Shown here: positions 296-39,048 of the stretch, one piece after another
Position numbering within the stretch: position 1 is the stretch's first letter
Layout: each line of letters begins with the position of its first letter
Source of the DNA: Candidatus Omnitrophota bacterium
GTDB lineage: Bacteria > Omnitrophota > Gorgyraeia > Duberdicusellales > 4484-171
Assembly: GCA_037146775.1 (NCBI GenBank)
Contig: JBAWWL010000008.1
Coordinates: forward strand, 6,160-70,159
Direction: 5' to 3'
DNA length: 64,000 bases
Program-made: the position numbers and the translations under genes
Notes under the pieces: model-generated
The model's input: only the letters and a program-made list of their open reading frames with translations
Told to the model about the DNA's origin: nothing
Databases searched by the model: none

Positions 296-1837
296 ATGAA
301 AAAAGTTGAAAGAGAAAAATGGACTTCTAAGATCGGTATCATTATGGCAGTTGCCGGCTCGGCGGTGGGTTTAGGTAATTTCTTGCGTTTTCCCTCCCAA
401 GCAGCGCAAAACGGCGGCGGCGCTTTCATGATACCTTATTTTATTTCTCTTTTTTTCTTAGGCATACCGCTGATGTGGATTGAATGGGCGATCGGCCGTC
501 ATGGCGGGTTGCTTGGCCACGGTACCGCGCCGTTTATTTTTAACCGCCTCTGGAAACACCGTGCTTCCAAATATTTTGGGGCTATAGGTATTTTTGGCCC
601 AGTAGCCATTTTCGTTTATTATGTCTATATAGAGAGTTGGTTGTTGGGGTATTGTTTTTATTCTTTGCGGGGAACTTTGCTTGGTTTCTCAACCAAAGAA
701 GAAATACTGGGTTTTTTAAAAAGTTATCAGGGCCTGGGTGCGCAAAATATATTTTTATACACGTACATATTCTTTCTCGTTACGTTTGCGATGAATTTTG
801 TAATTATTTATAAAGGCATAAAAAGAGGAATAGAAAAACTTTGTAACGTCGCATTGCCCATACTTTTTATATTTGCCGTTCTTATTGTTGTCAGAGTTGT
901 GACCTTGGGTGCGCCGGTGAAAGCGCATCCGGAATGGAACATTTTAAATGGCTTGGGATTTTTATGGAATCCTGACTTTAGCGCTCTGATGAATTCAAAA
1001 GTTTGGATTGCCGCTGCCGGCCAGATATTTTTTACTTTAAGCGTTGGTATCGGCGTGATCATGACTTATGCGAGCTACCTTTCCAAGGGCGATGATATAG
1101 TGTTGTCGGGGTTGACTGCCTCTTCGTTAAACGAATTCGCAGAGGTCATTTTAGGCGGAACAATCATAATACCTTTAGCATTTGCTTTTTTTGGCGGCAT
1201 AGGTGCGCAGACAATAGCGCAAAGTGGAAGCTTTAACATAGGCTTTGTGACGATGCCGCTTATTTTCTCTAAGATATCTTACGGGGCTGTTTTTGCCTTT
1301 CTTTGGTTTGCGCTGCTATTTTTAGCCGGTCTCACGTCCAGTATTTCTCTGCTTGAACCGCCGGTTTCTTTTTTAATCGACGAATTTTCTATTTCCCGTA
1401 AAAAAGCCGCAGCCATTATTGCATCGATAACTTTTGTGCTTTGTCAGTTTCCCATCTTTTTCCTTTCCCGGGGTGTAGTGGATGAGATCGATTTTTGGGC
1501 GGGATCGTTTTTCTTGGTAGTTTTTGCTTTTATCGAATGTATTTTGTTTATATGGATATTCGGTATTGATAAAGCCTGGGAGGAGATCCATCATGGCGCA
1601 GAACTTAATGTGCCGAGATTCTACAGGTTTATTATAAAATATATCACACCGTTATTTTTAATGTTGATATTGGGATTCTGGTTTTTTCAACAGGCTGTTC
1701 CCATATGTATGCTTAAAGGCGTAGCACCCGAAAATAAGCCGTACATAATAATGACACGAGTGGTGTTGGTAGTTTTATTTTTCATTATAGCGGTTTTAGT
1801 GAGAAAGGCTTATCGAAAAAAATTTAATGAGGCTTAG
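296..1837 (+). CDS. Sodium-dependent transporter, neurotransmitter:sodium symporter (NSS/SNF) family
   Basis: N-terminal AVAGSAVGLGNFLRFP signature of NSS family. About 12 predicted TM helices. 513 aa. Confidence 0.8.
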   Translation: MKKVEREKWTSKIGIIMAVAGSAVGLGNFLRFPSQAAQNGGGAFMIPYFISLFFLGIPLMWIEWAIGRHGGLLGHGTAPFIFNRLWKHRASKYFGAIGIFGPVAIFVYYVYIESWLLGYCFYSLRGTLLGFSTKEEILGFLKSYQGLGAQNIFLYTYIFFLVTFAMNFVIIYKGIKRGIEKLCNVALPILFIFAVLIVVRVVTLGAPVKAHPEWNILNGLGFLWNPDFSALMNSKVWIAAAGQIFFTLSVGIGVIMTYASYLSKGDDIVLSGLTASSLNEFAEVILGGTIIIPLAFAFFGGIGAQTIAQSGSFNIGFVTMPLIFSKISYGAVFAFLWFALLFLAGLTSSISLLEPPVSFLIDEFSISRKKAAAIIASITFVLCQFPIFFLSRGVVDEIDFWAGSFFLVVFAFIECILFIWIFGIDKAWEEIHHGAELNVPRFYRFIIKYITPLFLMLILGFWFFQQAVPICMLKGVAPENKPYIIMTRVVLVVLFFIIAVLVRKAYRKKFNEA

Positions 1838-1995
1838 ATTTTTTTAAGCCTCGTCCTGCCTGCCTAATCGGCAGGCGAAAAGATGGCAGGATGCAGAAAA
1901 AATATGGAGCCGAATTAACTCCACACCGAACTTGTTCTGGTGCGGGGTTGCACTAAATTCACCGACTTTAGTCGGTGCTAATTAACAGAGGTAAG

Positions 1996-2103
1996 ATGAC
2001 GCTGGCGGGCTGGATTTTTTTAATTCTTTCTTGGGGGATAATTATCAGTTTATCTATTTTTTGTATTCTCAGGGTTTTTAAAGAGCCATACAAGGATCTT
2101 TAA
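1996..2103 (+). CDS. Small hydrophobic peptide (35 aa), hypothetical
   Basis: ATG preceded by GAGGT 6 nt upstream. Translation MTLAGWIFLILSWGIIISLSIFCILRVFKEPYKDL gives a single TM helix. Lies in a 277-bp intergenic gap. Too short for the ORF track. Confidence 0.3.
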   Translation: MTLAGWIFLILSWGIIISLSIFCILRVFKEPYKDL

Positions 2104-2114
2104 TAGCTTCATAG

Positions 2115-3014
2115 ATGCGTAAAATCAGGTTTGTCTTTATATTTTTTTGTGTATTTCTTTTCCTGGGTGCTTCCGGCTACCATGCGTATACCGGCCTATC
2201 CTCGTATGCCCAGGTGCATAAAAATTTCCAGACGCTTCAAGATCGGGTTGACGTCATGGTGGAGAATTTTAGCGGAGAATGCGCGTTTATCATTAAAGAC
2301 ATAAAACATCCTTCTTGCGAGATTTCGCGTAATCAAAATCGCATGTTTCCTGCCGCAAGCCTGATCAAGCTGCCTTTAGCGGCGGTTGCGTTCAAAGCAG
2401 TGAAAGAAAATAAGATTTCACTCGAGCAAACCATTACCATTGAACGTAAGGATATTACCGGAGGTTCGGGGATACTCAAAACAAAGGTTGTACCTATCAC
2501 CATGACTTTTCAGGAGCTCATTGAAACGATGATTGCTCATAGCGACAATACCGCTTCGAATAAAATTATCGGTCTCTTAGGATATGAGTACATTAACGAT
2601 GGTTTCAAGGGGCTTGGTTTAAAGGGAACGATTTTGCGCAGAAAAATGATGGATTTCTCGATGCGGCGCAAAGGCGTGGAGAATTATATCACTGCCGCCG
2701 ACACCGTGTATCTTCTGGAGAAAATTTACAAAAAAGAGCTCATCGATATTCGGTCTTCGGAATTGATGATGGCATTCTTGAGGGAGCAAAAGATAAAAGA
2801 CAGAATCCCCCGTTATTTGCCTAAACAGGTTGATGTTGCCCACAAGACGGGGCTGGAGAGGGGGGTTGTTCATGACGCCGGTATTATTTTTTCTCCCAGG
2901 TCAGATTTTGTTATCTGTGTGCTTACTAAAAGGGTAAAGAGCTATAGTAAGGCAAAAAAATTTATTGCCCGTTTGTCGCTTCTGACCTATAATCGGCTAT
3001 GTATTGATAATTAG
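2115..3014 (+). CDS. Class A beta-lactamase-like serine hydrolase (secreted)
   Basis: Signal peptide. S-x-x-K (ASLIK), SDN (HSDNTASN) and KTG (HKTGLERG) motifs in canonical order and spacing. Confidence 0.7.
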   Translation: MRKIRFVFIFFCVFLFLGASGYHAYTGLSSYAQVHKNFQTLQDRVDVMVENFSGECAFIIKDIKHPSCEISRNQNRMFPAASLIKLPLAAVAFKAVKENKISLEQTITIERKDITGGSGILKTKVVPITMTFQELIETMIAHSDNTASNKIIGLLGYEYINDGFKGLGLKGTILRRKMMDFSMRRKGVENYITAADTVYLLEKIYKKELIDIRSSELMMAFLREQKIKDRIPRYLPKQVDVAHKTGLERGVVHDAGIIFSPRSDFVICVLTKRVKSYSKAKKFIARLSLLTYNRLCIDN

Positions 3015-24635: not shown

Positions 24636-24760
24636 GACAGATGACAGAAAACAGAAGACAGAGGAGATAAGGCAGATTTTTGACTTCTGACACCTATTTT
24701 CTGACTTCTGATATCTGACGTCTGACTTCTGACATCTGTTTTAATTTGGTAATCGGCCCC
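24636..24760. repeat. Inverted pair of heptanucleotide tandem arrays (RRCAGAR x5 then CTGACNT x8)
   Basis: aacagag gacagat gacagaa aacagaa gacagag ... ctgactt ctgacac ... ctgactt ctgatat ctgacgt ctgactt ctgacat. The two halves are reverse complements and can form a long imperfect hairpin just after the corA stop. Confidence 0.7.
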
Positions 24761-24873
24761 ATCGTCTTCCCGCCTGCACCCACGGTAGTGGGTTCGGCGG
24801 GATCCCGCAGAATCCGCGATAGCGGATGCATGCGGGAAGCTTAACGCTTACTGTTAGTAAGATTAAAATTATA

Positions 24874-25164
24874 ATGTGGTATGTTTATATCATCCAGAAT
24901 GATACAAACAAACGTTTTTATATAGGTTCAACCAATAATATAACCCGAAGGTTAGCCGAACATAATAGAAGCAAGAAGTGCTCTGTTACTCATTTCGGAA
25001 AATACTTTTTGATTCATCAAGAAGAATTTTCGAATATTAAAGAAGCAAGAGTGCGAGAACAGCAAATCAAATCGTATAAGGGCGGTAACGCATTCAAGAA
25101 ATTACTTCGCGAGCGCGCTGGCTTAAATATCATAAATACGGCCCCATCGTCTAGCTTGGTCTAG
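24874..25164 (+). CDS. GIY-YIG nuclease family small protein (YhbQ/UPF0213-like)
   Basis: YVYIIQNDTNKRFYIGSTNNITRRLAEHN is a GIY-YIG motif. The ORF tail overlaps the first 25 nt of the tRNA, so the true stop is uncertain. Confidence 0.65.
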   Translation: MWYVYIIQNDTNKRFYIGSTNNITRRLAEHNRSKKCSVTHFGKYFLIHQEEFSNIKEARVREQQIKSYKGGNAFKKLLRERAGLNIINTAPSSSLV

Positions 25165-25214
25165 GATGTCAGCTTCTCAAGCTGAACACACCGGTTCAAA
25201 TCCGGTTGGGGCTG
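25140..25214 (+). tRNA. tRNA-Glu (anticodon CUC)
   Basis: Manual fold. Acceptor GGCCCCA/TGGGGCT. D-stem GTCT/GGAT. Anticodon stem TCAGC/GCTGA with loop TTCTCAA. 4-nt variable loop. T-arm ACCGG-TTCAAAT-CCGGT. Discriminator G. Confidence 0.8.
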
Positions 25215-25224
25215 TTTTTATAAT

Positions 25225-25258
25225 TCAATCCCTCTACTTACATAGAGGGATTTTTTAT
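25225..25258 (+). terminator. Rho-independent terminator after tRNA-Glu
   Basis: tcCCTCTActtacaTAGAGGGa stem followed by TTTTTTATT. Confidence 0.65.
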
Positions 25259-25581
25259 TGATACTGATCACGGTAGTTTTGCATCTGTTTCCCCGTATAT
25301 TAACCAAAAGCTTTATGCTAAATCCCTTGAAGGTGAGATGTCTTGGAGTATAATATCACTCGAAAGGTCATTGAAAAATAATTGATTTAACTTACGATAT
25401 ATATAGATATAATATTTACACCCTGTGGAGGTTTGCTCTCGGCTCATACGAAAATACATAATTTTGCGGCGTACGATTCTTTTTTCTAAAGTTAAAGTTG
25501 CTGCGTTTTCCTTTGTTGTTTGTTTTAGGGAGCTGTAATATAGCTTAATTAGAAACAGAAAGCTAACGAAGGGGGGTGAGT

Positions 25582-26388
25582 ATGTTGGTAAGGATATTTA
25601 TTATTGGGGCGTTGTTGGCGGTGTTTCTGGTTACGGCTGCCGATAATGCGCCGGCTCAACAGCAGGCGCAGGGAGGGTCTCCGGCATTGGCAGAAGTCAG
25701 CCCGCCGGTTGTGCATCAGCGCGCTCTCAGTGTGCTCAAGCGTATGAGCGATACTCTTTCTCAGGCAAAGACAATCCGTTTTAGCGCCCGCAGCATAGTG
25801 CCCGTAAGAACTCCGTCAGGGATGTGGGCCAGTCTTTATGGGACTTCGCGGGTAGTCAAGGAAGGCGCCAGCAAGCTTTTTGCCCAAACGCGGGGAGATT
25901 TTTTTCCGTATGATTTCTATTTTAACGGCACGACGATAACGGCTTATTCGCCTACGAAGAATTTATATGCCGAGAGAAATGAGCCCGGCACGGTAAATAA
26001 CCTGATTGAAAATGCTTACAAAGAAGAGGGCAGATCATTTCCGTATGCTGATATACTTGTTGCCGAGCCTTACAGCGTTTTGACCGAAGGTTTGATAAAT
26101 GCCGTATACGTCGGACAGTCGGTGATTGATGGTGTTAAGACCGACCATCTGGCTTTTTCGAATAAGGGAGTCCAATGGCAGATATGGGTTGGCGTCCAAG
26201 ATCATTTGCCGCGTTTGGTGGATGCGACATATCTTGATGACGCCAGCGAGCCCAGCTATACGGTTGAGTTTTCTGACTGGAAACTTAACGAGCCTGTGGA
26301 GGCAGGGCAGTTTATTTTTAAAAATAAATCAAAGGCGGTAAAGGTCGAGTTCCGTAAGCCTGCTGCATTCTGGCCGCGGCAGTCTTGA
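25582..26388 (+). CDS. Secreted DUF2092-like (LolA-fold) protein
   Basis: Signal peptide. Pattern resembles the periplasmic DUF2092 family. Start moved to the ATG at 25582; the track start is GTG at 25576. Confidence 0.45.
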   Translation: MLVRIFIIGALLAVFLVTAADNAPAQQQAQGGSPALAEVSPPVVHQRALSVLKRMSDTLSQAKTIRFSARSIVPVRTPSGMWASLYGTSRVVKEGASKLFAQTRGDFFPYDFYFNGTTITAYSPTKNLYAERNEPGTVNNLIENAYKEEGRSFPYADILVAEPYSVLTEGLINAVYVGQSVIDGVKTDHLAFSNKGVQWQIWVGVQDHLPRLVDATYLDDASEPSYTVEFSDWKLNEPVEAGQFIFKNKSKAVKVEFRKPAAFWPRQS

Positions 26389-26426
26389 GAGAAGAAAAAG
26401 CGGAGATATTACCGGAGGAGTATGTT

Positions 26427-26942
26427 ATGAAAAAGATAAAAATAACGATTATAGCCGTTGCGGCTGTAGCAATGGTTTTCTTTGGCGCGCACGATGTGCT
26501 AGCGCGCGGTGGAGGTGGAGGGCACATGGGAGGCGGCGGCGGCGGTGGCTGGCACGGCGGAGGAGGCGGTGGCGGCGAGCACGGTGGCGGTGGCGGCGGG
26601 CACGGACAAGGCGGCCACAGGCATAATAACAATAATAATTATTACTATGGCGGCGGCGGGTGGGGTTACGGATTTGATGATGAAGCTGTAGTCAACGTGG
26701 ATTTGGATACTGATTCACGGCCGTCTACTGTTGTGGTGGAGCAGCCTACTACCGAAGTAGTCCAGCAGCCTGTACCAACAGCAGATGCGCCTGTCGGAGC
26801 TCAGGTGACAATGCTTCCTTCCGGAGCTGAGGGCAGGATTATCGGCGGCGCGCAATTTTATATAAGCGGTAATACCTGGTATAAGCCGTATTTCGGTGCA
26901 AGCGGCGTATATTATGAGGTTGTATCTCCTCCGAACACTTAG
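26427..26942 (+). CDS. Secreted Gly/His-rich low-complexity protein
   Basis: Signal peptide, then (G6-7-[HWE]H) x4, HRH, N5Y3, G4WGYG, and a structured-looking C-terminal domain. ATG at 26427 with GGAGGAG upstream. The track start at 26385 is TTG. Confidence 0.6.
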   Translation: MKKIKITIIAVAAVAMVFFGAHDVLARGGGGGHMGGGGGGGWHGGGGGGGEHGGGGGGHGQGGHRHNNNNNYYYGGGGWGYGFDDEAVVNVDLDTDSRPSTVVVEQPTTEVVQQPVPTADAPVGAQVTMLPSGAEGRIIGGAQFYISGNTWYKPYFGASGVYYEVVSPPNT

Positions 26943-27312
26943 AGGATGTTGCCTTTGTTTATAAGAAAATCAAATTCATGAATAATATCATTGCGCGTAT
27001 CAGGAAAGAGCTCTTAGAGGTGCTGCCGGCGTTTATCTTCTTTGTTGTTATGTTCCACATCCTTATGGTTACAAGGGCGCTGACGCTTGTAATGCTCCCT
27101 ATTAGCCAAGGAGGTTTTAAGTTAGAAACGGCTTTTTGTTAAGATGCGTCTAGCGCAAAAATATAACCGGTTTTTAGGTAAGGAAAACGAACTTTCAAAA
27201 ACCTTAGATAGTTAAAATAAACTAATAAAGGGTAGCAAATTATGAATGTCCGCCTCTAAAGGGTGGACATTCTACATCTATTTACCTGTAAAATAGTTAC
27301 ACAATTTCAGCT

Positions 27313-27560
27313 TCAGAAATGCCGGACAAAACGGATCCTCCTTCGCTAAAGCTTCGGAGGGCAGGCATCCTTTGGCGAGGGATTGCTTCTCAAATCAGCA
27401 ATTTTCTTAATAATTTCCATATTTACCATACAACTGTTACCTATATAATATAGAGAGGATACCTTGAGGCTAATGACCAAGCCCTGCCCTTAAATTCTCT
27501 CTTAGCCAAAAGAGAGAGGCGAATAGCCATGATTACTTAAGGTGATCATGGCATTTTTTA
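27313..27560 (+). repeat. Structured repeat element copy A (137-nt identical core, TATAAT box, two hairpins, T-run)
   Basis: Core 27322-27458 is identical to 28545-28681. Then CTCTCTTagccaaaAGAGAGAG and GCCATGAT...ATCATGGC hairpins followed by ATTTTTTAT. Confidence 0.7.
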
Positions 27561-27789
27561 TCTTTCGATTTTTCAAAGAGTTAGGGCGTTATTGCCAAAT
27601 CATTCTTCTGCGGAAGCTCATTACACGACACCTGTGTGTAAAATTTCTTACAAGTAAGCCAAAAATGACCGGACAAAACAATTCTATAAAGTATTTGAGT
27701 TAGATTAGCATAGCGATTCGTATTTATTTTTTCGCCTTGACATTATGTATCAAATATGATACATTTAATACGGAAATAAGAAAGAGCCG

Positions 27790-28161
27790 ATGTTGAATTA
27801 CTACGAAAGTTTTCTGGTTTATAAAGGCGAACATTACAGCATATATTTCCATGCTGAAAGTAAAAATTCGTCTATTGTGAATGAATATTTCGAACATTGT
27901 GATGATGCTACCCAGGCTAGCCTATTGTTTCTTGCGAAGGCCATGGCCGATACAGGCCGTATTTATGATGAAACTAAATTTCGTATTGAGGATAAGCAAA
28001 ATAAGATTTATTGTTTTAAGCCAAGGCAGGAACGTTTTTTCTGCTTCTTTTTCGTCGGCAAAAAGATAATAATTACTTCGGCTTATACGAAAAAAAAGCA
28101 GAAGCTTGATAAGCGAGAACTTAACAGAGCAATAGAAATTCGTAAACAATATTTCATCTAA
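27790..28161 (+). CDS. Type II toxin, RelE/ParE superfamily (HigB/Gp49-like)
   Basis: KIYCFKPRQERFFCFFFVGKKIIITSAYTKKKQKLDKRELNRAIEIRKQY matches the Gp49-like addiction-module killer consensus. 123 aa. Upstream of an XRE HTH gene. Confidence 0.7.
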   Translation: MLNYYESFLVYKGEHYSIYFHAESKNSSIVNEYFEHCDDATQASLLFLAKAMADTGRIYDETKFRIEDKQNKIYCFKPRQERFFCFFFVGKKIIITSAYTKKKQKLDKRELNRAIEIRKQYFI

Positions 28162-28178
28162 CACTAGGAGGTATGAAT

Positions 28179-28448
28179 ATGAAAAAGTCGATATTCGATA
28201 AAAAGATGGGAAACAAGAGATTTAAAGCTATATATGACGAAGTAGCTATTGAGATGGGTATAGGAGAGCAGATTGCAAAACTAAGGCACAAAGCAAAAAT
28301 GAGCCAATTGGAGCTAGCCAGAAAAGTGGATACCAACCGGACTACCATATCGCGTTATGAAAGTAGAATGTATAACCGCTACAATTTGAGCACGTTATTA
28401 AGAATCGGAAGAGCGCTACATAAGAAATTAAAGATATCTTATGTATAA
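28179..28448 (+). CDS. XRE-family HTH antitoxin (HigA-like)
   Basis: Cro/C1 HTH (MSQLELARKVDTNRTTISRYE). 18 nt after the toxin stop. AGGAGG 7 nt upstream of the ATG at 28179. Confidence 0.7.
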   Translation: MKKSIFDKKMGNKRFKAIYDEVAIEMGIGEQIAKLRHKAKMSQLELARKVDTNRTTISRYESRMYNRYNLSTLLRIGRALHKKLKISYV

Positions 28449-28535
28449 AATTTTCTTTATACCTAAAATGTCCAGCCAAAGCAAGACGGGCAAAATTTAA
28501 CTTTTAGTTACTCAAAGAGTTATACAATTTCCAGC

Positions 28536-28800
28536 TAAAAATGACCGGACAAAACGGATCCTCCTTCGCTAAAGCTTCGGAGGGCAGGCATCCTTTGGCG
28601 AGGGATTGCTTCTCAAATCAGCAATTTTCTTAATAATTTCCATATTTACCATACAACTGTTACCTATATAATATAGAGAGGTTATCTTAGGGGTAACAGC
28701 TAAGCCCTGCCATATAATTCTCTCTCTTGGCTAAAAGAGAGAGGTGAGTAGTCATGATTGTTAAATACGATCATGGCTATTTTTATGTCTTAGAAAAAAT
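28536..28800 (+). repeat. Structured repeat element copy B
   Basis: Same 137-nt core (28545-28681). Hairpins CTCTCTCTTggctaaaAGAGAGAG and CATGATtgttaaatacgATCATG, then TATTTTTAT. Confidence 0.7.
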
Positions 28801-29026
28801 AATGAGGTCAGCCCTTGAAATGCGAAGTGTTTTAGCTCATTAGTTCTTAAGCTCATGAGTTTACGCGAGCTTTAGCTTGCAGTGTCAGGTGCCTGCGGCG
28901 GAAAAGCTGAAGAATCAAACTAACTTCTACCTTGACCACTTCACCTCCCGGCAGTAAAATACCCGCAACTTTCAACCAAATAACCGTTTCCATTATGGAG
29001 GTTGAAAATAGTTTTAATTAGTGCAT

Positions 29027-29980
29027 ATGAAAAAATATTTTCTTGCTGCATTTGTATGTGTTAACCTATTATCCGGTTTGACGTTTAACGCAATTGCTGC
29101 TCAATCTGAACAGAATTGGGAATTCAAGCTTGACTCCAAATATTTTTTCGCAAGCCATACCTCTTATCAATTCGGCAACCCATATATCGGTAGCGATATG
29201 CCATTAAGTCGGCTGGAATTTCCTATCAATAATCTTTGGATGGGCGCAGGCTTGAGGCGTAATTTTGCGCGCTATTCCATAGGGATTAACGCTTTGTCCA
29301 GTGCAATGCGTAATACCCGTGGTCGAATGAAGGATTCAGACTGGGAAAATACGGATGATCTTAGCGAAAGAACCATTTTTTCTACTTCAGCCAACCGCAT
29401 GAATTACGGCATTATAGCCGGCGGCGATGTTGATTTAAAAGTTTCTGATTGGCTTAATTTTGCGCCAAGCTTAGATATCCGGCCGCTTGTCGGTTTTCAG
29501 TGGCAGAAATTTTCTTTTACGGTACATGACGGCGTTCAGCACTATTATAGCCCGTCTGCACCTGATGACCCGCTTCCAGGAAATCTTTTAGATTTTGAGC
29601 AGGTTTATTGGCAGTATTTTGCAGGCTTTCGCAGCTCCTGGGATATGGGTCGGCCGTTTAAACTGCCTCCGCTTAAATTACTCACCGAATTTCACGGAGG
29701 CTATGTCACAGGCTACAATAAAGATCATCATTTACTTAAAGGTGACCGCTATACCTTTGAAACGACTGACGGATATTGTTTCTACGCTTCTTTAGGCTTA
29801 GAAGCGCAATTAACTAAAAATATCAGCTTAGGCACCGGCATTGATTATCTGATGATTAGGACAACCGGTAAGCATAATTGGCGGTATAATGCAGTTGGGG
29901 TAGATTCAATATGGAATAATGGAGTTAAAGTCTACTCAGACCAGATAGGCATTAACTTGAATTTGACATATAGATTCTAG
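29027..29980 (+). CDS. Outer-membrane beta-barrel protein, hypothetical
   Basis: Signal peptide. Alternating amphipathic beta-strand pattern. C-terminal ...NLNLTYRF ending in Phe, an OMP sorting signal. Confidence 0.5.
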   Translation: MKKYFLAAFVCVNLLSGLTFNAIAAQSEQNWEFKLDSKYFFASHTSYQFGNPYIGSDMPLSRLEFPINNLWMGAGLRRNFARYSIGINALSSAMRNTRGRMKDSDWENTDDLSERTIFSTSANRMNYGIIAGGDVDLKVSDWLNFAPSLDIRPLVGFQWQKFSFTVHDGVQHYYSPSAPDDPLPGNLLDFEQVYWQYFAGFRSSWDMGRPFKLPPLKLLTEFHGGYVTGYNKDHHLLKGDRYTFETTDGYCFYASLGLEAQLTKNISLGTGIDYLMIRTTGKHNWRYNAVGVDSIWNNGVKVYSDQIGINLNLTYRF

Positions 29981-30185
29981 TTCTATGCTCGCTCGTAAAA
30001 AATTAATTGAGGGGGAATTCTGGGGACACAATACTTAATTATTTGAAAATAATCCTCACCTTTGACGGGATAGAAATAATGGGGTCAGCCTTGAGTATTG
30101 GAAACTTATTGTAATTCCGGCACACACTGCCTGGTGCAAAAATTATACACATTTTTAACCACCACTTACACGAAGAATTACCTCG

Positions 30186-30340
30186 CGAATAGCCAAATTT
30201 TCTTATTAATCTCCATATTGACCATATAACTGTTACCTATATAAATAAGAGAGGATACCTTAGGGCCAATGGCTAAGCCCTGTTTTTTAACCCTTCGTAA
30301 CTATATTTGTTGCAAAGGGTTTTTTATTTAGACTAAAATT
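30186..30340 (+). repeat. Structured repeat element copy C (3' part only, diverged) with terminator-like hairpin
   Basis: About 85% match to the 3' half of the core (ttttcttattaatctccatattgaccatataactgttacctatataaataagagaggatacctta...). Then AACCCTT...AAGGGTT followed by TTTTTATTT. Confidence 0.55.
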
Positions 30341-30444
30341 AAATTTCTTACGCTCTTAAAGAGCGAGTGGTATAATTTTTATATGTATAGGGTAGATAAG
30401 GCAATGATGAGTGTGTATATGAATTGTGAGATGAAGGTGTAGAA

Positions 30445-32444: not shown

Positions 32445-32553
32445 CGAATTATTCAAACGAGATAATTTCTTTTCTATCCGCCGATAGCCGGACAATTGAC
32501 TCATCGTTTTGGCCCGCATTAATTTCTCTTTGCTAAACCTCCTACCATTTTAA

Positions 32554-33555
32554 ATGGCGAGTGGTATAATTAAAAAAATGAATAGTACGGTGAAGGGGAA
32601 ATTTTTTCTGGTTATTATTCTGATTGTAGCTTTGCTGCTGCCAAGAATAGCCGATTGTCAGATAAAGAAATACCGTGGCAAAAAGATACTTTATGTAAAT
32701 TCGTATCATAAGGGTTATTATTGGAGCGATGGTGAACAGCAAGGTGCCCAGAACGTTTTGGCTCCGAGTGGCGTAGAATTGAGAATAGCATACATGGATG
32801 CCAAAAATAATCCTTCCGAAGAATTCAATAAACAAGCAGGCCTAAAAGTAAAAAAGTTAATAGAGGAGTTTGAACCCGACGTTTTAATTGTCGCCGACGA
32901 TAATGCGTTTAAATATATAGTTATGCCTTATTATCGCGATGCGGATTTGCCGGTTGTATTTTGCGGCATTAATTGGGATATATCAATTTACGGCGCTCCG
33001 TACAAAAATACGACAGGCATGCTGGAGGTTGGACTTATTGAACAGGTTTATGAGCATTTGAGAAAGTTTGCTAAAGGTAACAGGATAGGTTTTCTCAGTC
33101 CTGATGTGTTAAGCGAGCGCAGGAATGGTGAATATTTTGCTCAACATATCCCGGGAGGTTTTACCTATAAAGAATATGTACCAGATTTTGAAACATGGAA
33201 AAGGAAATATCTGGAAATCCAGGACAAGGTCGATATGCTTATTTTTTCTACTCCCATTGGGGTTAAAGATTGGGATTGGGATAAGGCCGAGCAGTTTGTT
33301 TTAGAAAACATTAAAGTGCCGATAGAAGGCGATATCGGCATAGCCTTGTTTGAGATAGCGAAGATTCCCGAAGAACAAGGAGAATATGTCGCTCGAACGG
33401 CTTTGAAGATACTCGATGGTGAAAAACCGGCCAATATTCCTATTGTTAAAAACAAGAAAGGGAGCCTATGTTTAAATTTGAAAGTTGCCGAAAAATTGGG
33501 TGTTATTTTTTCTCCGGGACTCCTGAGGAGCGCGGCAAAGATTGTTCGTAAGTAA
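32554..33555 (+). CDS. Periplasmic solute-binding-like protein (ABC substrate-binding family-like), hypothetical
   Basis: Signal/TM anchor. Alpha/beta pattern resembling the type-I periplasmic-binding fold. Weak assignment. Confidence 0.3.
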   Translation: MASGIIKKMNSTVKGKFFLVIILIVALLLPRIADCQIKKYRGKKILYVNSYHKGYYWSDGEQQGAQNVLAPSGVELRIAYMDAKNNPSEEFNKQAGLKVKKLIEEFEPDVLIVADDNAFKYIVMPYYRDADLPVVFCGINWDISIYGAPYKNTTGMLEVGLIEQVYEHLRKFAKGNRIGFLSPDVLSERRNGEYFAQHIPGGFTYKEYVPDFETWKRKYLEIQDKVDMLIFSTPIGVKDWDWDKAEQFVLENIKVPIEGDIGIALFEIAKIPEEQGEYVARTALKILDGEKPANIPIVKNKKGSLCLNLKVAEKLGVIFSPGLLRSAAKIVRK

Positions 33556-38667: not shown

Positions 38668-39048
38668 TTAAGAGCCAGCGATATTTGTCAGCAATACCCA
38701 CCCGGTCATACCTTCATATCCACCGGTCAGAATCTTTACTTTCGCGGTTTTTTCCCAAAAATTTGTTTCCAGCACTCTTGCCAGGGTGCAATTTTCTACT
38801 TCGAAACCGTCGCGAGAAAGCATTAATACCTGGTAACTTGGTTCTGCTTCCGCTATCCGGCAAGAAGTAAGATGGTTAAACATCTTTTTATTAATACCGA
38901 TGTAAACCGGTTGTTTTCCCTGGCGAGTTTTAAGGGTCACTACTTTACCGTTGAGATCAAGCTCGTCACAGAAGCTTTGTATAGGACATAAAAAAGATAC
39001 TACCAAGAGGAACACTCCCACTAAAGCTACGGATTTTCTTCTCATTTT
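38668..39048 (-). CDS. Secreted hypothetical protein (only minus-strand gene)
   Basis: Internal ATG at 39048 with a strong RBS AAGGAGGGGG. Signal peptide MRRKSVALVGVFLLVVSFL. The ORF track extends it to 39180. Confidence 0.5.
   Translation of the reverse strand, partial: KMRRKSVALVGVFLLVVSFLCPIQSFCDELDLNGKVVTLKTRQGKQPVYIGINKKMFNHLTSCRIAEAEPSYQVLMLSRDGFEVENCTLARVLETNFWEKTAKVKILTGGYEGMTGWVLLTNIAGS

Follow-up and report, generated by a model that had tools for sequence, protein, structure and literature searches.

What are the repeats that stand between accessory genes downstream of a tRNA gene in Candidatus Omnitrophota, and what put them there? In a stretch of 64,000 nucleotides (nt) of one such metagenome-assembled genome (contig JBAWWL010000008.1, positions 6,160 to 70,159 of the forward strand; hereafter the window, whose own positions are used throughout), an intergenic element of about 270 nt with a promoter-like box, hairpins and a terminator is found in two full copies (c1, c2) and one partial copy (c3). 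The copies lie 2-5 kb downstream of tRNA-Glu(CUC), the only tRNA gene in the window, and the original prediction took them for a candidate small RNA or leader. The reading that we find best supported, with a probability of roughly 55%, is that they are composite junction modules bordering small integrase-less cassettes that would be stacked at tRNA-Glu(CUC) of the chromosome. Accretion at a tRNA gene is already known; new here, on this reading, are borders marked by long promoter/terminator modules and not by tRNA-fragment repeats.

By blastn, c1 (27291-27561) and c2 (28514-28786) are 87.6% identical over 275 aligned columns (E 4e-93). Exact comparison gave a longest identical run of 137 nt (27322-27458 = 28545-28681), in agreement with the perfect 137-nt block originally described, and outside this block the identity drops to 79% on the 5′ flank and 76% on the 3′ flank. 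The predicted third, diverged copy ending in a hairpin and a T-run was also recovered: c3 is 86% identical to c1 and c2 over 30196-30282 (E 1e-23 to 1e-25, blastn), is without the 5′ ~110 nt of the element and runs on into a different hairpin and T-run (30289-30327, hairpin 30289-30321). A 23-nt piece of the 5′ edge of the element, AGCCAAAAATGACCGGACAAAAC, occurs again at 27657-27679 and matches 28533-28555 at 96%. Beyond c1-c3 and this fragment, no copy was detected in the window with blastn, nhmmer or a covariance model of the second and third hairpins described below (hp2 and hp3), nor in 0.5 Mb of related loci with blastn, nhmmer and cmsearch; the covariance search proposed with the original prediction, run for hp2 and hp3, recovered c1, c2 (109 bits) and one relative (111 bits) and added no further copies. 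The repeat is no assembly artefact, because two Logan contigs of SRR12676968, each matching the window at 100% identity, break off after running 30 nt into the identical block (L041 stops at window 27351 and L043 starts at window 28652); such breaks are expected at a true repeat, and we infer an assembler k of 31 behind them. In addition, c1 and c2 differ by single-nucleotide polymorphisms in the first hairpin (hp1) and in the trailer.

The element is made of two halves, both read on the + strand. The left module of c1 starts with the 5′ flank (27291-27321; the part that is 79% identical to c2), ending in the motif AAATG(A)CCGGACAAAAC, which recurs at 27657-27679 and 28533-28555. The identical block (27322-27458) follows, with a GC-rich hairpin (27336-27370), an AT-rich stretch, a −35 box TTTACC (27422-27427) and a −10 box TATAAT (27444-27449). 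A promoter scan matched this sigma-70-like promoter, TTTACC-16-TATAAT, at 10/12 positions in both c1 (27422-27449) and c2 (28645-28672), so the TATAAT box first proposed stands for these two copies; in c3 the boxes read from the sequence are TTGACC (30218-30223) and TATAAA (30240-30245). All three copies retain the AT-rich stretch and both boxes, and conservation within the element is highest in the promoter region (86-100%). The small hairpin hp1 sits about 10 nt 3′ of the −10 box, and in c1 it forms, together with the junction, the segment 27463-27486 (CTTG..CAAG, then GCC-CTG, the junction being the G at 27486). Its stem is CTTG/CAAG in c1 and CTTAG/CTAAG in c2 and c3, a single compensatory pair that is statistically uninformative with three sequences; in c2 the hairpin reads GGTTATCTTAGGGGTAACAGCTAAGCCCTG. 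The left module of c2 (28514-28709) comprises the 5′ flank, the block 28545-28681, the promoter, hp1 (28686-28704) and CTG (28707-28709), and c3 has a left module (30196-30282) with the AT-rich stretch, the two boxes, hp1 (30259-30277) and CTG (30280-30282). In a repeat search, the homology shared by the three copies ends at ...AAGCCCTG, that is, at 27486, 28709 and 30282.

To the right of this point, c1 and c2 carry one type of module and c3 a second one. The right module of c1 (27487-27559) consists of CC, hp2 (27496-27517) and the terminator hairpin hp3 (27526-27552) with its T-run (T6); it carries CCCTTAAATTCTCTCTTAGCC, and trailers of this type start with CC(C/A)TTAAATTCTCTC. The module continues over 27560-27679, where the homology to a relative described below extends to about 27663, and ends in the 23-nt motif at 27657-27679. 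In c2 the right module (28710-28790; 109 bits by cmsearch) has hp2 at 28720-28743 and hp3 at 28746-28782, and in c3 (30283-30330) the fold gives a T-run, the hairpin AACCCTTCG..CAAAGGGTT at 30289-30321 and another T-run. Two hairpins with conserved stems followed by a T-run had been predicted, and they are indeed present: over c1, c2 and the homologue in the relative, 58/58 stem cells of hp2 and hp3 are paired and 3 pairs are altered on both sides. hp3 has a GC-containing stem of 11-12 pairs ahead of the T-run, and a terminator scan matched 27526-27552 + T6 and 28746-28782, while the hairpin and T-run of c3 were read from the fold. The + strand RNA folds are more stable than those of shuffled sequences (z = -4.3 and -5.3), and the hairpins are predicted to act as transcription terminators.

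The origin of these hairpins became apparent from the same locus in relatives, which were recovered via CorA homology and are referred to by L-numbers, the labels of the loci and contigs compared. The CorA amino-acid (aa) identity to the window is 85% for L124-126, 83% for L129-133, 73% for L136-142 and 76%, over the part seen, for L106, a JGI contig (Ga0265297_10000329) of which 10 kb was compared. In L106, the sequence straight after the 3′ end of tRNA-Glu (...GGGGCTG|CCAAAAAATTCTCTC...) corresponds by homology to the right half of c1 and c2. The match spans hp2, hp3, the T-run and about 100-110 nt beyond (nhmmer E 2e-13 with c2, 8e-11 with c1 and 3.4e-16 over window 27496-27663; cmsearch 111 bits), hp3 lies about 50 nt past the tRNA 3′ end, and there is no promoter of the element type at that place. 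Because they directly follow tRNA-Glu in L106, the stem-conserved hairpins are, as judged by homology, a tRNA-Glu trailer/terminator module. The trailer of c3 is homologous to L136 11832-11885, which follows a 3′ fragment of tRNA-Glu (score 41 versus 17.1 +/- 2.8, 0/2000 dinucleotide shuffles, z about 8.5).

The tRNA-Glu gene of the window (25139-25215, + strand; ARAGORN, and 55.7 bits with the Rfam tRNA model) ends in ...GGTTGGGGCTG with no encoded CCA. Its 3′ half is 100% identical to those of tRNA-Glu in L106, L124 and L136, and the homology stops exactly at ...CTG. The gene leaves the homology to L106 and L130 right after ...GGGGCTG and runs into another terminator hairpin: its trailer (25216-25262, + strand) consists of a T-run, the hairpin CCCTCTACTTACATAGAGGG and a T-run and is unlike the trailers of all relatives. 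The identity of this trailer to other trailers is at background level, with a weak similarity to the c3 trailer (13/2000 shuffles), and in our reading the first inserted unit has its proximal end here.

We then tabulated twelve junctions, with the identities over 45 nt to the left and 70 nt to the right of the G of CTG. Three left classes (the tRNA, a module of the relatives called X below, and the promoter/hp1 module of the window) and several right classes are freely combined. For example, c1 and c2 compared with the tRNA locus of L106 are 81-83% identical on the right and 55-65% on the left of the junction, whereas c3 compared with c1 and c2 is 83-85% identical on the left and 59-65% on the right. 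All left and right switches of homology occur right after ...CTG, which is the discriminator, the last base of tRNA-Glu. Such independent switching of left and right at the 3′ end of a tRNA points to recombination junctions rather than to one evolutionary unit.

The region 3′ of the tRNA varies accordingly between genomes. L124, L130, L136 and L106 all retain the gene order upstream and the pairing of CorA with tRNA-Glu, and the genes after the tRNA differ in each; because the relatives keep CorA-tRNA-Glu but differ after it, the ~13 kb from 25216 to about 38600, directly 3′ of tRNA-Glu, is a variable region anchored on this gene. Synteny with L130 is back at the gene at 38668 (- strand) and at hisF (39270), and the corresponding interval in L130 is only ~3 kb.

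In L124, L130 and L136, the 17-20-nt 3′ end of tRNA-Glu is repeated 2-3 times, each time after a conserved module of ~70 nt, X, and the tRNA sequence after it begins inside the T-loop. Module X has a −10-like box, the conserved TAGCGGTTCCACGA, a hairpin whose stem covaries between genomes, and GAGTG. In L130 (4808-5187) the tRNA 3′ end (AAATCCCGTTGGGGCTGCCA) is present three times, and a 169-nt unit of tRNA end, terminator and X occurs twice in tandem with 100% identity; in L124 (11820-11899) a tRNA 3′ fragment lies 260 nt past the tRNA; and in L136 (11720-11831 and 13440-13518) two units of X and tRNA fragment flank a 454-aa gene, one of them broken by a GC-rich palindrome. Just past the trailer, L106 encodes at 929-2988 (- strand) a 532-aa large serine recombinase (Resolvase + Recombinase + Zn_ribbon_recom) and a DUF2924 protein, which are a candidate integration module for the tRNA-Glu locus. 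No relatives of this recombinase were found in viral contigs.

The palindrome of L136 (11766-11819), which interrupts a tRNA-Glu 3′ fragment, is related to a palindrome in the window (24766-24839; ..CCGCCTGC..GCAGGCGGG..), and these small GC-rich palindromes may belong to a family of miniature mobile repeats in Omnitrophota. The 74-nt window palindrome follows 13 nt that repeat the 5′ end of tRNA-Glu (GGCCCCATCGTCT, 24755-24767), and an open reading frame (ORF) for a GIY-YIG nuclease fills the gap between it and the genuine tRNA-Glu (region 24755-25164). Before tRNA-Glu in the relatives there is a GIY-YIG gene in L124 and a 23S_rRNA_IVP gene in L136. With the copy of the tRNA 5′ end, the palindrome and these differing 5′ genes, the 5′ side of tRNA-Glu also looks like an insertion site. 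Further upstream, just past the CorA stop (24677-24739), there are three tandem 21-nt units (TTTTTGACTTCTGACACCTAT-like), for which the Rfam match is sub-threshold and chance-like.

On the reading of the junctions that we favour, elements would have been inserted by site-specific recombination at the extreme 3′ end of tRNA-Glu. The left module would then be the distal end of a cassette, composed of the GC hairpin, the AT-rich stretch, the sigma-70-like promoter, hp1 and ...GCCCTG, and the right module would be an exchangeable trailer, with which the next unit begins or which is the displaced trailer of the host. A unit inserting at the tRNA end must bring a terminator for the tRNA transcript, and this would be the role of the right modules: each insert would have supplied a terminator at which the tRNA transcript, or the unit before it, now ends, and its far end would have carried a promoter directed outward. 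Repeated insertion, or Campbell-type recombination between ends, could have given the present order of tRNA, unit 0, c1, unit 1 (higBA), c2, unit 2 (omptin-like), c3 and the rest. Because insertion at the last base of the tRNA need not restore tRNA sequence, no tRNA fragment would have to be repeated in the window, and deletion derivatives would be expected to have lost the recombinase. What the data show are the repeats, the conserved hairpins, the homology of the right modules to sequence beside tRNA-Glu in relatives, the common breakpoint and the hypervariable locus; the model presumes, beyond these, that site-specific recombination was the cause, that the recombinase acts in trans and that the modules are transcribed. 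The perfect 137-nt block between flanks of 76-79% identity indicates, from the alignment, a probable recent crossover or conversion between the copies flanking higBA. The promoter and terminator probably would yield a short junction-spanning transcript (~80-110 nt) with no demonstrated function.

Several observations weigh against an origin of the copies as cassette borders. A second copy of the tRNA end (AAATCCGGTTGGGGCTG) is absent from the window at <=3 mismatches, and the junctions share with the tRNA end only CTG (plus CC in c1 and c2). The ORFs of at least 110 aa in the island (25.2-39.2 kb) have no recombinase domain in Pfam, NCBIfam or PHROGs, and no recombinase is tied to the sites. 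A second recurrent breakpoint, after CCGGACAAAAC (27321/27322, 27679/27680 and 28555/28556), is unexplained by the model. Two trailers of the same type in succession need either related elements with similar proximal ends or homologous recombination, and the perfect identity over 137 nt could come from recent gene conversion or duplication and not from insertion. The relatives are few: the hp2/hp3 trailer is present in one genome and the c3 trailer in one lineage (metagenome contigs L136 and L137).

The left module was detected in no other genome of the GTDB, JGI metagenome, viral, plasmid and phage sets scanned, and its mobility is therefore only putative: the 17-mer AACTGTTACCTATATAA gave 38 matches among GTDB species genomes, all chance, a 21-base gapped pattern gave 0 matches in JGI metagenomes, a viral scan gave 2 matches, both chance, and blastn against plasmids and phages gave nothing. 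No convincing alignment was obtained between the left module of the window and the X module of the relatives. The GC hairpin (27336-27370, CCTCCTTCGCTAAAGCTTCGGAGGGCAGGCATCC) does resemble L130 4519-4552, just past the CorA stop and upstream of tRNA-Glu (3/2000 shuffles), a lookalike confined to the L129-L133 lineage across 1.1 Mb of fetched loci and the window; this likeness fits a passive origin from DNA flanking tRNA-Glu equally well. The promoter region is not significantly similar to the region upstream of the tRNA in L130 (574/1000 shuffles). A pseudo-tRNA origin of the 5′ block was also considered and rejected: the block shares GCTTCTCAA with the anticodon loop of tRNA-Glu, which is not significant (126-130/2000 shuffles).

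A passive origin as such, in which unequal or homologous recombination copied an intergenic stretch from beside tRNA-Glu as higBA and the omptin-like gene were inserted, with no site-specific role and no function beyond promoter and terminators, is in our opinion unlikely. In its favour, a perfect 137-nt block with diverged flanks resembles a recent gene-conversion or crossover tract, the only detectable relatives of both halves adjoin tRNA-Glu (the 5′ hairpin upstream of it in L130, the trailer downstream of it in L106), short direct repeats bracket the cargo (27657-27679 / 28533-28555 and 28797-28818 / 30074-30094), and the island is without a recombinase. This explanation leaves unaccounted for, however, why three independent switches of homology fall on one nucleotide, the 3′ end of a tRNA, and why the c3 trailer follows a tRNA-Glu fragment in another genome; moreover, the relatives have bona fide attachment-type repeats and a serine recombinase at the locus.

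The original prediction, a family of small regulatory RNA genes, would make each copy a promoter, a structured RNA of ~100 nt and a terminator that acts in trans and was duplicated in an accessory region. The anatomy on which it was built and the non-coding nature of the element stand: the promoter match is good in all three copies and lies in their best-conserved region, the + strand folds at the z-scores given above and closes in an intrinsic terminator, compensatory changes keep the stems, and there is no conserved ORF, the small ORFs inside the copies being not conserved in frame, as had been stated, and without a record when looked up as called genes. What did not stand is a structure specific to a small RNA, as the hairpins are the sequence directly after tRNA-Glu in L106. 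Both conserved hairpins thus form the tRNA-Glu trailer of a relative that has no such promoter, and the putatively transcribed part is the least conserved one (76% between c1 and c2) and gives way in c3, past the junction, to a terminator without homology to the others. The three putative RNAs have no more than ~30 nt (hp1) in common, and the single covariation there is uninformative. Neither the window nor the 0.5 Mb of related loci nor the public collections scanned yielded a further copy. Rfam 15, which the prediction had proposed to consult, returned no family for the element at gathering or permissive thresholds: only the tRNA passes its gathering score, and at E up to 10 the best matches reach 15-20 bits versus cut-offs of 46.7-117 bits. 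We therefore consider a small RNA family improbable as the explanation of the copies, although an RNA made from the promoter and terminator would be compatible with the junction model.

A role as leader, the other function proposed, is unlikely. A strong terminator and 115-240 nt precede each next gene, the distances from the terminator being about 230, 240 and 115 nt for c1, c2 and c3 and not 100-230 nt as first given, and each gene has its own promoter-like site. The position of the three copies at the borders of accessory cassettes was confirmed. Nor did we see any other pairing by which the terminator hairpin would be affected, as in an attenuator.

A much more speculative extension of the junction model, to which we attach little probability, is that the tRNA-Glu locus is a cassette-capture site, integron-like in outcome and built differently. 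A recombinase acting in trans (e.g., the serine type of L106) would join units at the last base of the tRNA, and the ~270-nt junction would be a functional device: the outward promoter of one cassette end and the terminator of the next would jointly give a short RNA that changes its 3′ half with each recombination, insulates the cassettes and could report or regulate the state of integration.

It is very improbable that the copies are miniature inverted-repeat transposable elements (MITEs), integron attC sites or a type I toxin-antitoxin repeat, even though they are multi-copy, intergenic, ~270 nt long and beside cassettes that include a toxin-antitoxin pair: the borders of the copies share no terminal inverted repeats and have no target-site duplication, the inverted repeats being internal hairpins only, so that a known insertion sequence or MITE with such ends was sought and rejected; an attC-like stem, GCCCT..AGGGC, can close around the hairpins in c1 but not in c2 or L106 (DNA folds), there are no R''/R' box pairs (RYYYAAC...GTTRRRY) such as define attC sites of 57-141 nt, no intI and no tyrosine recombinase in the island ORFs; and a 21-aa hydrophobic ORF, MLLKSAIFLIISIFTIQLLPI, identical in c1 and c2 (27383-27448 and 28606-28671), is probably not a gene, starting at a TTG codon from which GAGGG is separated by only 1 nt, too close for a usable Shine-Dalgarno spacing, overlapping the promoter and being shortened by a stop in c3, while the minus-strand ORFs are not conserved.

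The three junction modules bound recombinase-less units of 2.3, 1.2 and 1.6 kb, all with genes on the + strand. The cargo of unit 0 (25568-27087) is a DUF2092 gene (Pfam), a gene of 171 aa and a third gene cut off after its first ~36 codons (26979-27087). It is 80% identical at the nucleotide level to L134 9766-11236, a block without a tRNA nearby that has a GGDEF gene on one side and a complete gene of 173 aa on the other; from this match, the cargo looks like a captured or translocated chromosomal fragment of 1.5 kb. Unit 1 (27790-28448) carries higB-like (Gp49) and helix-turn-helix antitoxin genes (Pfam), with a promoter-like TTGACA-17-TACATT at 27737-27765. Unit 2 (29027-29980) carries a gene for an omptin-like outer-membrane protein (Pfam Omptin), with a promoter-like site at 28932-28960, and is flanked by a 22-nt direct repeat (28797-28818 / 30074-30094); exactly the same protein is also encoded on NCBI contig CAZTHQ010000038.1 of GCA_964613555.1. 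Past c3, a 38-nt repeat (79%) at 30340-30377 and 32534-32571 ends in GCGAGTGGTATAATT, an extended −10 lookalike. Its first copy precedes a DUF6794 gene and its second is at the start of an ABC-substrate-binding-like gene, where the listed ORF starts within the repeat, at 32554.

Hardly anything has been described of the mobile elements of the uncultured Omnitrophota, and here one tRNA-Glu gene is the seed of a hypervariable cassette region in several of their lineages. If the junctions are active recombination sites, they offer a handle on cargo-only islands that are missed by finders based on integrases and tRNA fragments. For annotation, the lesson is that a tidy repeat of promoter, hairpin and terminator is not necessarily a small RNA gene. 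QUAD/Sib and LDR/Rdl of E. coli are intergenic repeat families that encode small RNAs, and the window element resembles them as a multi-copy intergenic repeat of a few hundred nt with its own promoter and terminator; unlike them, it is without a conserved toxin ORF or antisense pair, and its transcribed part is the least conserved and differs in c3 past the junction. With the intrinsic terminators of tRNA operons it has in common that hp3 follows tRNA-Glu in L106 and that the stem is kept by compensatory changes, but in the window hp3 follows a promoter and a 35-nt hairpin segment and not a tRNA.

Other parallels are found among islands that grow by accretion. Like the cis-mobilizable elements (CIMEs) of ICESt-type accretion in Streptococcus (PMC5704250; the concept also in PMC3146451), the window has tandem segments without integration genes between putative attachment sites, and its junctions would join the end of one element to the start of the next; functional attachment sites and a mobilisation in trans are putative here, and the window contains no integrative and conjugative or integrative mobilizable element. 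The tycheposon islands of Prochlorococcus (10.1101/2020.12.28.424599) are similarly anchored on a tRNA, with successive integrations pushing older ones outward, degenerate remnants and cargo-only pieces, and differ in having the partial tRNAs and tyrosine recombinases that are not seen in the window.

The tandem islands at tRNA and transfer-messenger RNA (tmRNA) genes, of the Islander type (PMC4383910) and at ssrA of Dehalococcoides (PMC3146451), share much with this locus. In the latter, 20-bp repeats of the ssrA 3′ end each have a conserved motif upstream, a serine recombinase of ~540 aa lies beside attL, and integrase-less units are regarded as cis-mobilizable elements gathered by accretion (PMC3146451). 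As in these islands, the variable region lies directly 3′ of a single, intact tRNA gene, synteny is broken there, small units follow in series, and the breakpoints are at a fixed sublocation of the tRNA. A displaced tRNA 3′ fragment and an integrase, the other marks of an Islander-type island, were not found in the window, whose units have only CTG(CC), are tiny (1.2-2.3 kb) and recombinase-less, and are bordered by a long repeat (a left module of ~190 nt and a right module of 75-190 nt) with a promoter and terminators. The fragment repeats are present in L124, L130 and L136, and across the relatives and the window there are a conserved non-tRNA motif upstream of the repeats and units with and without a recombinase. 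In L106, finally, the serine recombinase of ~530 aa lies on the reverse strand at the tRNA-proximal junction, as DsiB does in Dehalococcoides (PMC3146451).

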